This document shows positions 865-57,273 of a DNA stretch of 64,000 nt, piece by piece. Numbering within the stretch: the stretch's first letter is position 1; every line of letters begins with the position of its first letter. The stretch is from the NCBI GenBank assembly GCA_012295275.1, contig CM022675.1, forward strand, positions 3,224,001-3,288,000. The letters run 5' to 3'. The position numbers and the translations under genes are program-made. This DNA is from Chrysomallon squamiferum. Lineage: Eukaryota > Animalia > Mollusca. The notes beneath the pieces were generated by a model. The model had not been told where the DNA came from. It was given only the letters and a program-made list of their open reading frames with translations, and did not search any database.

Positions 865-2456
865 ATTTCACTTTCCACACTTCCACTCTGACTGACAAAT
901 TTACAACTCAGACAGGTGAGTGAATCTGAAATAATGTTGTTTGTTTGCTTGTTTCTTTATTTGCTAGTTTAGTATTAATTTATTTGTTTGTTTGTGTATT
1001 TATTAGTTTGTTTGTTGGTCTGTCTGTCTGTTTTTATTTATTTATTTATTTATTTGTTTTATTACTTGTCTGTTATTTATTTGATGTTTATGTTGCTTTT
1101 TATTAAACAACAACATTAACTACATATATATATATATATATATATATAAAAAATTGTTACACAGTAAAAGCATTTTTTGTCTTGTTTATGTTCAAAAGTT
1201 TTGTATTACATGTTTTATAGATTTTTCATCAACTCAAGTTCAGATCACCTCCGAAACAACAATTAATTCAGATAAAAATATAAATAATTTGAATATCTGT
1301 GTGATAAAATTTGGGGATTGAGTGAAGGGATGATAGTTTCGCAATTAATTAATTAATTTTTATAATTATTTAAAAAATATATATATTTGTTTGTTTGTTT
1401 GTTTATTGATATATTGTTATTGTTTTTATTTCATTTATTGTTTTGTACCCAGTAGATATTTTTCAGATTACAAGAATATTTTTTCTTTGATGTAAATTAG
1501 ATGTAACCATTTTGTTACAGATCAAAGTTCAACTGGAAGCACAAAAACGGTTTTAAGTAAAACAAAATCATCAAATTCAGGTAACTTTGTGAATGTATTA
1601 TTGTTAAATTCAATGTTATTATTTTAAAGCTAAAATAATGTTTTATATATATATATATATATATATAAACACAGATTAAGTAGAAGTAGTATGTAAGTAT
1701 TTGTCATTAAAAACAGTGAACACAAAAATATAAAATGGCTAGTCAGAAAAGTCTAGTGTTCACTTTCTTTTCCTTGGAAACATGAATGTTAGCAAACAGC
1801 TCTTATTAATGGATAATTTTTTTTTTTTTTTTTGCATTTTATAAATTTATATTTTTTGCAGGTGTTGCTGTTGGTTTTTCTGTAACTGTCATTATACTTT
1901 TAGTAGTGTGCACAGTTGTCGCTGTTGTTTATATGAAAAGGTAAATAGAGTTACCATTCTTGATTGATGACTTGAGATAACTCTTTATATTTATGTAATA
2001 ATGTTTCAGTTCTTAAATTATTTACTATATATAATAAACAAACATAGAAATAATAATAATATCAAAAATAATAATTATTATTATCATCATTATTATTATT
2101 AATGATTGTCATTATTTTTTAATTGTTATTTTATTTTAGCTTATTTCATGTTAATTGATTGCTATTTTTGAAAAGTAAATATTAAAAATGTATATTTTGT
2201 TTTCTCAATCACACACTTTATCTGTTATTGCAGGAAAAATCTTTTATGTTTTCAACAAAAGTCAGTAGACGTCGCTCACAACAACAGCAACAACTCAGTG
2301 ACTACGACAACAGCAACAGAAACTGAGAACAGTGCAATCAGTGACTCAAATTATGAGCAACTCAGTATGACTCACAGTTCTGAAAATGAGTACATGAGCA
2401 TGCCACGTGAAACAGAACATGTTTACTGTGTAATGGGCTCAAATGTTGAAGATTAA
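865..2456 (+). CDS. Paralog A: 3' part of a CTLD/WSC-family type I membrane receptor, short-tail class (5' exons not found in the window)
   Basis: Stalk exons 865-915 (DFTFHTSTLTDKFTTQT) and 1521-1580; 1221-1271 looks like a stalk exon but its donor reads AT. TM exon 1862-1940 (GVAVGFSVTVIILLVVCTVVAVVYMKR). Tail exon 2234-2456 (KNLLCF...DSNYEQL...EYMSM...HVYCVMGSNVED*). Phases are compatible and TM/tail are homologous to D and E. Confidence 0.8.
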
Positions 2457-3530
2457 AACAAATAAAGTTTGACTGAGTGAAATACTCGATCTGCTAGTTA
2501 AAATAAAACTTTTACAAGTGTACTGCATAGTCTGCAGAAATGTTTATTTATTTTTTAATTTTTAATTTTGTTTACTTTCATATTCAGGAAAATACTGAAA
2601 CACAGATTAATCAGATTAACTTAACATTTATAATAATAATAATAATAATAATGGCTAATATTTATTTGATAATTATGATAATTAATTAATTTAGAATTAC
2701 TTCTTTGTATTAATAACACACACATATTCAAACAGCTCTACATGCACATTCATTTACATATCTATTTCTGTGTATATCTCTATAGGCACATACACAAACA
2801 CATATCTGTCTTATCTATCTATTCATATAATCTATCCATATATCTACCTTTCTATCTAATTTTATAATGTACACATAAAATAATATATACATGTAGGGGC
2901 CGACAGCTGATAAATATTTCACTTACTTTTTAAATGCAAACTACTAATTATTCACAAAAATACAAAACACACAACTACTCTTCACAGTCAAAATTTACAT
3001 CAGAAACATCAAGTGTAATAATGATCTGTTCTCTCTGTGAGACTTATTTAACTAATTCCTGTTCCAACTGGTTATCTTAACATGTTTATCAAGATTATTG
3101 TAAAATGATTATTTATTAATGTCAGTACTGAACAGCCTTTACTTCCCTAATTACAAAAATATTTTGAGAAATGGAGAAGTGTATTTAGAATTTTTAAAAT
3201 TAAAGCTACAATAATGAATGTGTATGTGTGTAAATGAAAGATTGTAAAACACAGAAGTAATTTTTTCTTAAAGTTGTGTAATTCAGAGCTGGTCACACAA
3301 AATATTTCCTGTTCCAGTCAATACCAGTGACTGGTTTTCCTGTTTACGAGAGGGTATATATTTTGTTAATAATAAACGAGAGTAGTCCATGCTGTGCTAT
3401 CATCAGGTTTCCTCTCCGTACTTCTATGATTCTTAACACATCACCTTGTAATTATATATTACAAATTAATAAAACATCTCTTCTTCCTATGACATCAAGA
3501 AATGACAAAAGAACACAGAATTATTAAAAA

Positions 3531-53700: not shown

Positions 53701-56700
53701 ATTTCAGATCTGCCTGTTTCTGTAGATATAAAAAGCAGAACAAGTAAAAACAGCAACTGCGGCTACGTCAAATATGAAAATAACAAAATCACCCTTCAAT
53801 TTGCAGACTGTAATGCAAAGCGGACGTTAGCTGTTTGTCCAAGTAAGTTGTTTATTTATTTATTTATTTATGTTTGTTTGTTTGATTCTTTATTGCTTGT
53901 TTTTTTTTTTTTTTTTTTTTTTTTTTTTCTGGTGGGTTTTTTGTTTTTGTTTTTGTATTTTGTTTTTTATTTATTTGTTTGTTCGTTCGTTTATTTTTGT
54001 TTATAATCGTTCTGTTTCTGCAAGGGTGGTATGTTTTGTGCGTTTGAATGTGTATGCATTTAACTAATATTCTTTTTGTTGTTTCAAAATACTAACATCA
54101 GTTCAGTTAAAAAAACATTCAAAAGCAGATTTGTTTCAGTCAGAACTTTCACTGACTGTTGTTCTACGTTTCAGAAAAAAGCTTTAAAGGCGATATGACA
54201 AATGTTTGCAGAAATACGATATGTATTTTAACACAATATTTAAAATGGAATGAAGCTGAAGTAAAGTGTGGTGGAAATTTGTCAAAACTGACAGACTCAG
54301 CTGAGTCAGAACTGAAAACACTGATCAACGATGAATCGCCAAATTACTGGATTGGACTGAAACGAAACATTGAATGGAGGTGGACTGATGGTAAGAAAAC
54401 ACACAGACAGCCTCACATACACCCAAAGAGACATGCACATGTACACACATAACACACAAACCATATATATATATATATATATATATATATATATATATAT
54501 ATATACAGAATACAAATAAAAATATATAAATATACATGTACATATGTATGTTTTGTGTGTATGTGTGTGTGTGTGTTTGTGTGAAGATCGCATGCATAAC
54601 TAAACATATAGGTTCAGAAAATGCATTTCATGTTTGTTCATCTACCAGTAAACCAACGTACATGGTTATGTGATCATGTGTGTGTGTATGTGTAGTTGTC
54701 TGTCTCTATGAATGGGTTTAGACCGCAGTAATTTAGTGCCTCATTGATAACAGATTGCTTCATTACATTTTCTTTTTTTTTTTTTTTTTTCTGTCTGTTT
54801 GTGTGTGTGTGTGTGTGTGTGTGTGTGTGTGTGTGTGTGTGTGTGTGTGTGTGTGTGTGTTTAATTATTTAACTTTAATTTTTGTCTTAACTATAGGACG
54901 CCGTGTTACAAATCTGGATTACAGATATCGAACAACACACCATGAAAGTATTGCATGGTATGGAGACAGCTTTTACAACTTTCCCAAAAATTCGTTCACG
55001 AAACTATCGGCTATTTGTCAACTTTGTGAGTATCGTATTGTGTGTGTGTGTGTGTGTGTGTGTGTGAGTGTGTTACACACATAGACATATTTGAGCAAAC
55101 AGATATAGTTAACATACATAGGCACAGAAACACACACAAACCCAGAGAAAAAACTCGCACGCGTGCATACATTGCAGCGGGCACGTGCACATATAATGCA
55201 TATATTCACATAAATATAAGTATATTACATTAATTTAGGCGTCTATTTCTATAAATTAATATTTATATTGAAAAGTTAAATTCGATAATGGAAAATCAAC
55301 TCTATAAGAAACGTTATTATCTATCTCTAGTATTTCTTACATGTATCTTTAAACATTTTTAAGCGAAATTAATAATAGTATCATAGTAGTGGTAGTAATA
55401 GTACTAGTAGTACTTCTAATAATAATGATGATGATGATGATGATGATGATGATGATTTTGAAACAATCAAAAACGGAAATATATATACACACACATACGT
55501 ACATCCTGATTTTAAATTAAAAGAATTATAATGGCATTTGACAAGAAATAAGATGATGTTGATAATGTTGATAAAATGATAAAGACGATTCACCATTTCA
55601 CTATAAAGAACAAACATGTAACTTGTATTAACAGATAAAACAACTACTACATCAGTTCCAACGACCAAACTGCTAACATTTAACACGACTGTTACAACGG
55701 CAACGACAACAAAAGAAACAGTGGACCCCACAACAACACAATTTAACTTTCTGACGACAACGTTGTTTGAAAAAGGACGAAAACAACAGACGAACCAATC
55801 CAAGAACAATGCAGGTCTTTTGAACATTTTCTTTATTTTAATATTGACTTTGTTTTACTTGTCTTTTATTTTATTTTATTTCATTTATTAACTTCCTTAT
55901 TTATTTTTTTCATCAGCGTATTTCTTTTCTTGAGGCTTGTCAAAGAACGATCACAAATGGTCTGTTTCCTCAGTTTTAAATTACGACTGTTAATTGTGGA
56001 TAAACGATGTTAAAAGTTTTGTAACAAGCTCAGAGGTAGGTAAATAAACAGATGTAACAATATTTATAACTTGTTTGTTTTTAGCTTTGATTGGCGGCAG
56101 TGTTGTTGCAGTTATTGTTGTTATGGTAACATCTATCTTGATTTTCATCTGGATGAAACGGTAAGCATTATTCATTTATTTATTTATTTATTTGTTTGTT
56201 TATTTATTTATTTATAATATTTATTTATTTATTTATTTTATCTTATATTACTTATTTATTTAATTCAATGTTACTTTATTTTACTGTATATCTGTGAAAC
56301 GACAAAAAAACACGGATAGTACAGAAATATGTTGAAACATTTGACGTATCATGAAGCAATAATGTTTTTCTTAATTATACCAAAATAAATAAATAATTTA
56401 ACTAACTAATTAATTAATAAAGTATATCTTATTATAACTTTCAATTTTCATTCTCTTTTATGTTACAGAACAACACGTTTTTGTTTCGCAAAAGAAAAAA
56501 CATCAGAACAGAAAGTTCATTTTCGGAGAGAGACTGTTAAAAAAACACAGCAGAACGTAAACAAAGGTCACATAAACAAAAGTTACAACACTGAAACTGG
56601 AGACTATGAATCTGAACAAACTGTTAAAACGGGAATTAATAAAATGATGAACGAGAACCTGTCTAATGACGTAAAAAGTTACGTAATTTCTGACGTGACA

Positions 56701-57273
56701 CGCGAAGGAGCAGATGACGACTGTTACAGTAAAATTAACAAAGTTAAACGAGGAACGGTAACTCTACTTCAAACTGATAAACAGAGTTGTTCCCCTCTAA
56801 CCACTGACAGCAGACAGAATATTTACGTGAATGTTAGTAATGATTCAGATTACGAAACAGCAGAAGCAATTCAAGAAACTCGTCCTGTTACTGAAGATAA
56901 ACATAATGGTGGCGATATTGACAAAACAGACGGGAAAAGAATGAAGACAAACACACCGAAGACGCACATTAACATCGCTGATGATGGAGTTTACGATACG
57001 ACAGACACAAAAATACCGACAGCAACTTCATCGAATGTGTACCATCATCTTGGTAAACAAAACGTCGACGACTACGACACAACAGAAGCCGTTGTTTCAA
57101 ATTTCTGTGATTCCAGTTTATATAACCACACTGACGTAAATTCATCTCAGTATTCATTAAAAGCAGACGACATCAACTGTGAGAACGTAGATGAAGAACT
57201 GAATTTCTCTCAAAATGATGGAAATGTTTATTTCGTTCTGGAAGACGAAGATGTAGATGAAAATCCAGCTTAA
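50705..57273 (+). CDS. Paralog G: divergent CTLD(WSC-inserted)-CTLD-mucin stalk-TM receptor with long Tyr-rich tail, about 709 aa
   Basis: Exon 1a 50705-50777 (MLSTAVGIFIIFFLCVSPTQSEIL) or 1b 51259-51328; then 51675-51893, 52123-52274, 52577-52721 (GRKCFC...RCPGTYDEFCGGADVVSVY, a clear WSC end), 53708-53842, 54175-54390, 54897-55025, Thr-rich 55635-55814, TM 56085-56160, tail 56469-57273. GT-AG, same phases as C and E, total 2130 nt with exon 1a, open frame. Confidence 0.87.

Follow-up and report, generated by a model that had tools for sequence, protein, structure and literature searches.

The vertebrate paired receptors (CEACAM, Siglec-5/14 and 11/16, LILR, KIR and Ly49) are encoded by clustered paralogs that fall into two tail classes and include pseudogenes (PMC5112662). 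In the putative pairs of Xenopus ceacam genes, conversion is confined precisely to the exon, with hardly any synonymous change (PMC5112662). We have analysed a stretch of 64,000 nucleotides (the window) from the snail Chrysomallon squamiferum (GenBank assembly GCA_012295275.1, contig CM022675.1, positions 3,224,001 to 3,288,000 of the forward strand), in which a cluster of receptor loci combining C-type lectin-like and predicted WSC domains has the same organisation. The differences from the vertebrate receptors are that the snail ectodomain is unrelated, that the transmembrane segment is uncharged and comes with no adaptor, and that a strict immunoreceptor tyrosine-based activation motif (ITAM) is absent. 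Ly49 receptors, moreover, are type II proteins, unlike the predicted type I snail receptors.

Several invertebrate systems are also comparable. The Biomphalaria clusters GRC/PTC1, PTC2, LG16 (C-type lectin/Ig/FN3/TMEM154) and LG5R consist, like the present one, of fast-evolving single-pass genes, and they show presence/absence variation (PMC7494358, PMC10875847, PMC13712769, PMC12297450). As far as their descriptions allow comparison, they differ in that PTC2 lacks known domains (PMC7494358) and the others carry Ig, FN3, EGF or PTP domains; neither a WSC domain inside a C-type lectin-like domain (CTLD) nor a pairing of tails is described in the available text of these sources. The fester co-receptors (FcoR) of Botryllus and the Alr proteins of Hydractinia are, like the snail genes, multigene receptor families; they carry immunoreceptor tyrosine-based inhibitory motif (ITIM), hemITAM or core tyrosine motifs, vary in gene content, and show that invertebrate ITIM/ITAM receptor families have already been described (PMC12065747); they differ in their Ig or sushi ectodomains and their role in allorecognition. 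The oyster proteins CgCLec-HTM and CgCLec-TM1 are likewise transmembrane C-type lectins, signalling via a hemITAM and Syk, but have one carbohydrate recognition domain and one hemITAM, and no nested WSC domain or two-lineage cluster is described for them in the available text of a review (PMC13027682). Bivalve proteins combining C-type lectin and WSC domains have been mentioned, with no detail in the available text (PMC10140915). In the Gigantopelta hologenome paper, C-type lectins are included in the tally of pattern recognition receptors, and the part available does not describe the present family (PMC7895826). Full-text literature searches, which did not cover most subscription journals, gave no relevant description of WSC with C-type lectin domains in molluscs, and a search on mollusc paired receptors gave no mollusc system among the matches listed.

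Seven receptor loci in two tail lineages

Exon searches located seven receptor loci in 57 kb:

865–2456, + strand: gene A, 3′ part only; open frame with GT-AG sites; the 5′ part would precede the window start
3531–6292, − strand: pseudogene B, long-tail lineage; stops; lacks exons 1–6 in the window
11417–18762, + strand: gene C, long tail, 601 residues; open spliced model
19666–27025, − strand: pseudogene D, short-tail lineage; stops, frameshifts and a lost splice site
30504–38516, + strand: gene E, short tail, 486 residues; open spliced model with RNA pieces
43263–46276, + strand: pseudogene F, exons 1–7, C-like in exons 5–6; lost donors, frameshifts and a stop
46591–49358: 200-base N gap (46591–46790), then a 17-base satellite of 125 copies (47236–49358)
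50705–57273, + strand: gene G, divergent long-tail member, 709 residues; open spliced model

The preliminary description of this DNA, made from the letters alone, had counted seven paralogs, of which three were open, three were pseudogenes and one was partial. This inventory holds, with C, E and G open, B, D and F broken and A partial. The orientation was said to alternate, which is true from A to E (+, −, +, −, +) and fails for F and G, both on the + strand. The single exon and phase plan that had been proposed applies to exons 1–7 of C, E and G, where the phases are 1, 1, 0, 1, 1, 1, 1, and to the transmembrane exon (phase 1 to 2), and does not extend to the stalk exons, which are gene-specific. 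GT-AG sites bound every intron of the three open models (10/10 in C, 10/10 in E and 9/9 in G).

The proposed two classes of tail are borne out, with 72–76 residues in A, D and E and 208–268 residues in B, C and G. The transmembrane and tail exons define two old lineages, long (B and C) and short (A, D and E), whose tails can be aligned only near the membrane; F probably belongs to the long-tail lineage with B and C. Members of the two lineages lie tail to tail in a repeated unit:

1768–6403: A (short) and B (long) as a tail-to-tail cassette, copied in inverted form from the same unit as the C-D cassette (15327–20361); collinear blocks 64–83% identical

The intergenic spacers of the two units are identical at 753 of 881 positions. 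It follows from this inverted copy that a long-plus-short cassette was duplicated and that one member was then lost reciprocally in each copy, leaving C open and D dead in one, and A open and B dead in the other. With three pseudogenes and a duplicated cassette among seven loci, the birth-and-death character first assigned to the cluster stands.

Exon 2 is homogenised across the tail lineages

The second exon, which is membrane-distal, has an identity of 94.6–99.4% across C, D, E and F; in the 150-base flanks the figure is 64–86%. The identity spans from 7 bases before the exon to 4 bases after it, ending at the splice consensus, and includes the copies in pseudogenes D and F. Between C and E, which belong to different lineages, none of 38.8 synonymous sites has changed in exon 2, compared with 54.3 of 150.2 in exons 3–7 (Fisher p 5e-7). 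The corresponding synonymous rate (dS) is 0 for exon 2; for exons 3–7 in order it is 0.22, 0.35, 0.93, 0.66 and 0.55, and for the transmembrane exon 1.75. For exons 3–7 pooled, dS is 0.49 and the nonsynonymous rate (dN) is 0.29, and these exons are constrained but fast-evolving; between C and E, dN is below dS (p 0.003). It is likely that gene conversion has kept exon 2 alike across the lineages. Since the same signature is used to call the Xenopus ceacam pairs (PMC5112662), we read the exon-limited pattern as a paired-receptor signature, and the paired-receptor type of evolution put forward in the preliminary description gains support from it. Not every copy is homogenised, because one exon 2 variant found in RNA has 13 differences in 128 bases.

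The claim of shared ectodomains applies in the strict sense to exon 2 only. Amino acid identity between C and E is 98% in exon 2, 82% and 70% in the WSC exons, 32% in exon 5 and 51% in the second lectin domain. Over the folded ectodomain it is 198 of 299 residues (66%), and G has 81/294 and 83/290 (∼28%) in common with C and E, respectively. The mosaic structure reported earlier exceeds chance: in the C/D/E/F quartet, the grouping CF|DE is supported at 41 of 43 informative sites in exons 5–6 versus 3 of 14 in exons 2–4 (permutation p 5e-5).

A probable WSC domain within a split lectin domain

Exon 1 is hydrophobic and was read as a signal peptide, and the receptors are predicted to be single-pass, type I proteins. 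The ectodomain is set out here on gene C:

12348–12515, + strand: exon 2, N-terminal half of lectin domain 1 (counterparts D 26781–26948, E 30931–31098, F 43615–43781)
13386–14043, + strand: exons 3–4, probable WSC domain inside lectin domain 1 (profile matches)
14539–14667, + strand: exon 5, C-terminal half of lectin domain 1 (profile match)
14994–15571, + strand: exons 6–7, lectin domain 2 (CTLD profile)

After lectin domain 2 come a Ser/Thr stalk, the transmembrane segment and a tyrosine-rich tail. The exon 2 profile matches the N-terminal half of DEC-205 CTLDs (E 1e-6), and the exon 5 profile has a single PDB match, to the C-terminal portion of CLEC9A (E 0.0045). Against the CTLD profile, the exon 5 scores of C, E and G were reached by 0, 0 and 1 of 1000 shuffles. 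Scoring exons 2 and 5 jointly is a weak test, in which the scores of C, E and G were reached by 7, 58 and 258 of 500 shuffles, significant for C only. The split reading of lectin domain 1 therefore rests on the separate tests of the two exons. The fold signature of a CTLD (cysteine pattern and WIGL-type strand) is present. In lectin domain 2, Pfam Lectin_C matches exon 6 of gene E (E 0.0015) and of G (E 0.00072); exon 7 of G did not score above shuffles against the CTLD profile (140/1000), and a comparison of the exon 5 and exon 7 profiles gave no match.

Exons 3–4 show no CTLD signal. The sole PDB match of the exon 4 profile is 7PZ2, the domain of yeast Wsc1 (E 0.41). Pfam WSC (PF01822) scores E 0.06 on exon 4 of G, and E 4.8e-4 with 20.7 bits, below the 27.8 gathering cut-off, on the relative P0028 from Gigantopelta aegis introduced below. 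Six cysteines of the eight-cysteine WSC pattern, which includes a CGG loop, are found in exons 3–4, in the order CxxxC, CxC, C, CG; by our reading, the two absent ones would be the partners of a single Wsc1 disulfide, C27-C86 (PMC9024836). It is thus likely, judging by these profile matches, that a WSC domain is nested in lectin domain 1, where the usual ligand loop sits. The preliminary description did not mention this nesting. AlphaFold models of P0028 (mean pLDDT 31 and 40) are too poor to support the fold.

C-type lectins that bind sugar in a calcium-dependent manner are marked by EPN or QPD and WND motifs, and these are absent from C, E, G, P0028 and the second relative, P0003. WSC domains may bind glucan or protein, the latter for example in Kremen (PMC9024836). 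In the light of both points, the glycan recognition that had been inferred at the outset is unsupported.

Tyrosine motifs of the two tails

The motif scan covered the four intact-frame tails (A, C, E and G), with D added for the short-tail motifs. The long tail of C holds 15 tyrosines. YNH occurs in it four times, where 0.05 would be expected, and it also has three acidic YxxL/I sites that are distinct from one another (p<0.001). Elsewhere, YNH occurs three times in P0003 and once in G. The short tails of A, D and E share the order SxYxxL, then YxxV/M, then YxxM. SxYxxL and the spacing Y-x12-Y-x10-Y are conserved in all three, and the short tails have an ITAM-like spacing (p 0.001–0.003). SxYxxL fits the ITIM definition given in PMC5112662, but is no more than chance would give.

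Transcription of the family

Contigs from three metatranscriptomic runs of one study were aligned to the region of gene E (30860–38700), and direct RNA coverage is thereby confined to E downstream of exon 1. These contigs carry no tissue, strand or level information, and the counts given are among those listed. Spliced transcripts of the family, a point on which the preliminary description was to be judged, were borne out: family-spliced contigs were seen in all three runs, some pieces match E exactly, and the long-tail lineage is represented only by a 13-base loose end. Joints with GT..AG ends lie at introns 2 and 3 of E, and there are also a stalk-to-stalk joint and a joint of A/D type from transmembrane to short-tail exon. 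The RNA revealed the stalk exon of E at 36209–36316. Pieces with no difference to E make up 3 of the 24 listed (one on exon 5, one on a portion of exon 6 and one where the tail exon begins), and the E-exact contigs have a depth of 2.9–5.5. Of the sites listed, 4 of 22 in the tail and 3 of 10 in the stalk carry private variants, absent from the window, and the many contigs that match no window copy exactly represent further paralogs or alleles.

Two unusual forms were also seen. One repeats the stalk exon in tandem, with a joint at 36207–36316 going back 108 bases. In the other, represented by one loose end, an F-like exon 1 runs on into exon 3 (31986), which fits an in-frame skip of exon 2 that would remove the N-terminal half of lectin domain 1.

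Relatives in other species

Exon 6 of G was compared with 1.84 billion representative sequences and gave 29 matches, comprising 25 generic Lectin_C proteins, two unrelated repeat proteins and two family members. Both of the latter are uncharacterised Gigantopelta aegis proteins, LOC121385488 (XP_041372121.1, here P0028) and LOC121385364 (XP_041371956.1, here P0003). They are 22–30% identical to C, E and G across the WSC domain, the lectin halves, the transmembrane segment and the tyrosine-rich tail, and G is the closest to them among the window genes. Their genes are likely to share one chromosome. They differ in that both are long-tailed and an exon 2 half is not clear in either of the annotated models; no family name is attached to them. 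P0003 also has a weak match to Pfam TMEM154 (E 0.0013, below cut-off).

Three further searches were weak negatives: neither of two candidates from a word-seeded search with exon 2 of G was related, a word-seeded search with the P0028 region gave only P0028 among 713, and a poorly aligned 11-sequence profile gave only P0028 among 7990. The leads from the ESM Atlas all scored below 0.9; they include an unnamed 60-member Mollusca cluster, found twice, and neighbouring layilin and mannose-receptor-like clusters. A scan with Rfam gave no matches.

Interpretation and alternative explanations

Our preferred reading, with a probability of about 0.45, is that this is a transcribed birth-and-death receptor cluster with two tail lineages, which may work as a paired-like non-self sensor having a shared distal module and two phosphotyrosine outputs. 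The WSC domain inside lectin domain 1, replacing the usual ligand loop, would form the distal binding head, and clustering by ligand would allow a Src-type kinase to act on the tails by phosphorylation. The repeated acidic YxxL/I sites would then make the long tail an activating scaffold for Syk or adaptors, and the short tail, in which YxxM/V sites come after the conserved SxYxxL, would dampen the signal or switch it. The polarity cannot be fixed from sequence; that the long tail activates and the short one damps is a doubtful guess and the weakest step of this reading.

A number of observations weigh against this reading. Short-tailed activating members of the KIR, Ly49, LILR and Siglec-14 type have a charged transmembrane residue for DAP12 or FcR-gamma, and no such residue is found in A, C, E or G, nor is a strict ITAM or immunoreceptor tyrosine-based switch motif present in their tails. 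The match of the short tails to an ITIM-type motif is at chance level in shuffles (p 0.09–0.12). YxxM, found in A, D and E, and YxN, found in D and E, are typical of activating tails, and the guessed polarity reverses the vertebrate length rule. A shared ligand is not assured: near-identical residues number only 55 of ∼300 in the ectodomain, the homogenised exon appears to be scaffold from the N-terminal half of the lectin domain, and the WSC exons differ between C and E at 18–30% of residues. In no exon does dN/dS between C and E exceed 1, so there is no sign of positive selection in this pair, and the two genes lie on the same strand. The divergent exon 2 variant in RNA counts here too, as does the slight transcript support for long tails, where the 13-base loose end is identical to the transmembrane exon of C and one mismatch off that of D. 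In its mode of evolution, the cluster resembles a paired-receptor system. Because the charged-residue test fails and the tail motifs are equivocal, we do not file it as a member. The stronger proposal is unlikely, namely that molluscs independently evolved true activating/inhibitory pairs on a WSC-in-lectin scaffold, in which conversion keeps the pair matched, short tails inhibit and long tails activate, and which in vent-type snails would set tolerance versus killing of bacterial partners.

The two lineages might instead both activate, the long tail as a multi-site scaffold and the short one in co-stimulation through PI3K/Grb2. The system would then serve immune or symbiont recognition with outputs that are not opposed, and conversion would be a by-product of tandem arrangement. 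Both YxxM with ITAM-like spacing in the short tails and the hemITAM-like sites of the long tails fit this view, as does the lack of a strict [ILV]xYxx[LV] ITIM in A, C, E and G, and polymorphic clusters of single-pass genes without demonstrated pairing are known from snails (PMC7494358, PMC10875847, PMC13712769). However, the homogenisation, limited to a single exon, extends across lineages in which the transmembrane exons are near synonymous saturation, and conversion as a by-product would be expected to enter introns, which it does not; we regard this explanation as somewhat unlikely. Receptors with a non-immune function in adhesion, matrix or chemosensation, using the tyrosines as sorting or adaptor motifs, would account for the missing calcium and sugar motifs, for a WSC domain of a kind that also binds protein, as in Kremen (PMC9024836), and for the layilin and mannose-receptor-like neighbours, all below 0.9. 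The turnover, pseudogenes, mosaicism and extra RNA variants speak against it. Such features are more typical of recognition genes under conflict, and we consider a non-immune role quite improbable.

The array could also be largely in decay, with G the one conserved gene and A–F young duplicates drifting towards pseudogenes under neutral conversion. Three of the six A–F loci are dead, intron 1 of C is damaged and one stalk exon of that gene is dead, the depth of the E-exact contigs is low and G is the closest to the Gigantopelta relatives. Set against these are the excess of dS over dN between C and E, the long-standing divergence of the tail lineages and the spliced contigs in all three runs, which leave general decay very improbable. 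That the copies are an artefact of assembly or haplotype duplication, a concern raised at the outset, might be suggested by the N gap and satellite between F and G and by the near-identity of exon 2. Yet the paralogous blocks are mostly 64–86% identical, the 8-base target duplication around a hAT insertion is clean and there are RNA pieces that agree exactly with E. For A–F the artefact is largely refuted, and overall it is barely credible; the linkage of G to A–F depends on the join across the gap and satellite.

Gene models and other features of the window

The exons of the modelled genes, and the surviving parts of B, are as follows:

865–915 and 1521–1580, + strand: A, stalk exons
1862–1940, + strand: A, transmembrane exon
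2234–2456, + strand: A, short-tail exon
11417–11495, 12348–12515, 13386–13537, 13902–14043, 14539–14667, 14994–15191, + strand: C, exons 1–6
15446–15571, 16131–16187, 17369–17422, 17843–17918, 18138–18762, + strand: C, exons 7–11
30504–30582, 30931–31098, 31986–32140, 32499–32640, 33358–33474, 34226–34429, + strand: E, exons 1–6
34759–34884, 36209–36316, 36928–36981, 38009–38087, 38288–38516, + strand: E, exons 7–11
6167–6292, − strand: B, exon 7, with stalk remnants
4462–4537, − strand: B, transmembrane exon with a stop
3531–4176, − strand: B, tail exon with a stop at 4127

A candidate exon of A at 1221–1271 lacks a GT donor. In intron 1 of C, a broken partial duplicate of exons 1 and 2 (∼11875–12290) carries a good acceptor that runs into stops, and the acceptor of the intact exon 2 is pyrimidine-poor and weak. 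Because of this upstream decoy, C is open only if the weak acceptor is used. Its dead stalk exon (16630–16736) has a frameshift and no donor. G has two duplicated, in-phase first exons (50705–50777 and 51259–51328), each with a GTAAGT donor and possibly reflecting alternative promoters, and its stalk is one Thr-rich exon.

Exons 1–6 of B were not found in the window by nhmmer. In D, an out-of-frame fusion joins exon 1 to exon 2, exon 6 is frameshifted, stops lie at 22019 and 19863, the stalk acceptor is lost and a copy of exon 9 is displaced to ∼25081–25139; intron 4 holds a displaced copy of the intron 8/exon 9 region (24898–25389). F has lost the donors after exons 1 and 6 and has deletions of one base in exon 2 and two in exon 4, with a stop at 45238; it ends before the N gap, and its tail class lies outside the visible sequence.

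The window is AT-rich (∼29% GC, 200 N), with dense self-similarity across 1.6–46.3 kb. Three further elements were seen:

6799–9433: hAT/Buster-type transposon, bearing terminal inverted repeats and flanked by an 8-base target duplication without mismatch
40943–42324: between E and F, a fragment of SelO whose first coding exon is intact (Pfam E 2.7e-10)
58700–64000: degenerate AT-rich tandem repeat, with 40-base units at 59581–59909 and 60002–60870

The hAT transposase is split over two frames on the minus strand (7607–8578 and 6975–7703), and the element sits inside what we take to be a Tc1/mariner-like remnant, an uninterrupted copy of which lies at ∼27701–28174. The second SelO exon occurs as two tandem copies, the latter of which has a stop, and further exons were not seen; the fragment is likely a truncated pseudogene.

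Implications

The arrangement of a WSC domain inside a lectin head was not found described in the literature searched. Degenerate receptors of this kind fall below Pfam cut-offs and would be missed in counts of gastropod pattern recognition receptors. Snail resistance loci are clusters of single-pass genes, and the present cluster offers a testable case with defined domains, two tail lineages and the kind of conversion footprint that in vertebrates is the mark of receptor pairs driven by pathogens. Should the guessed polarity prove true, paired-receptor logic would extend to molluscs by convergence.

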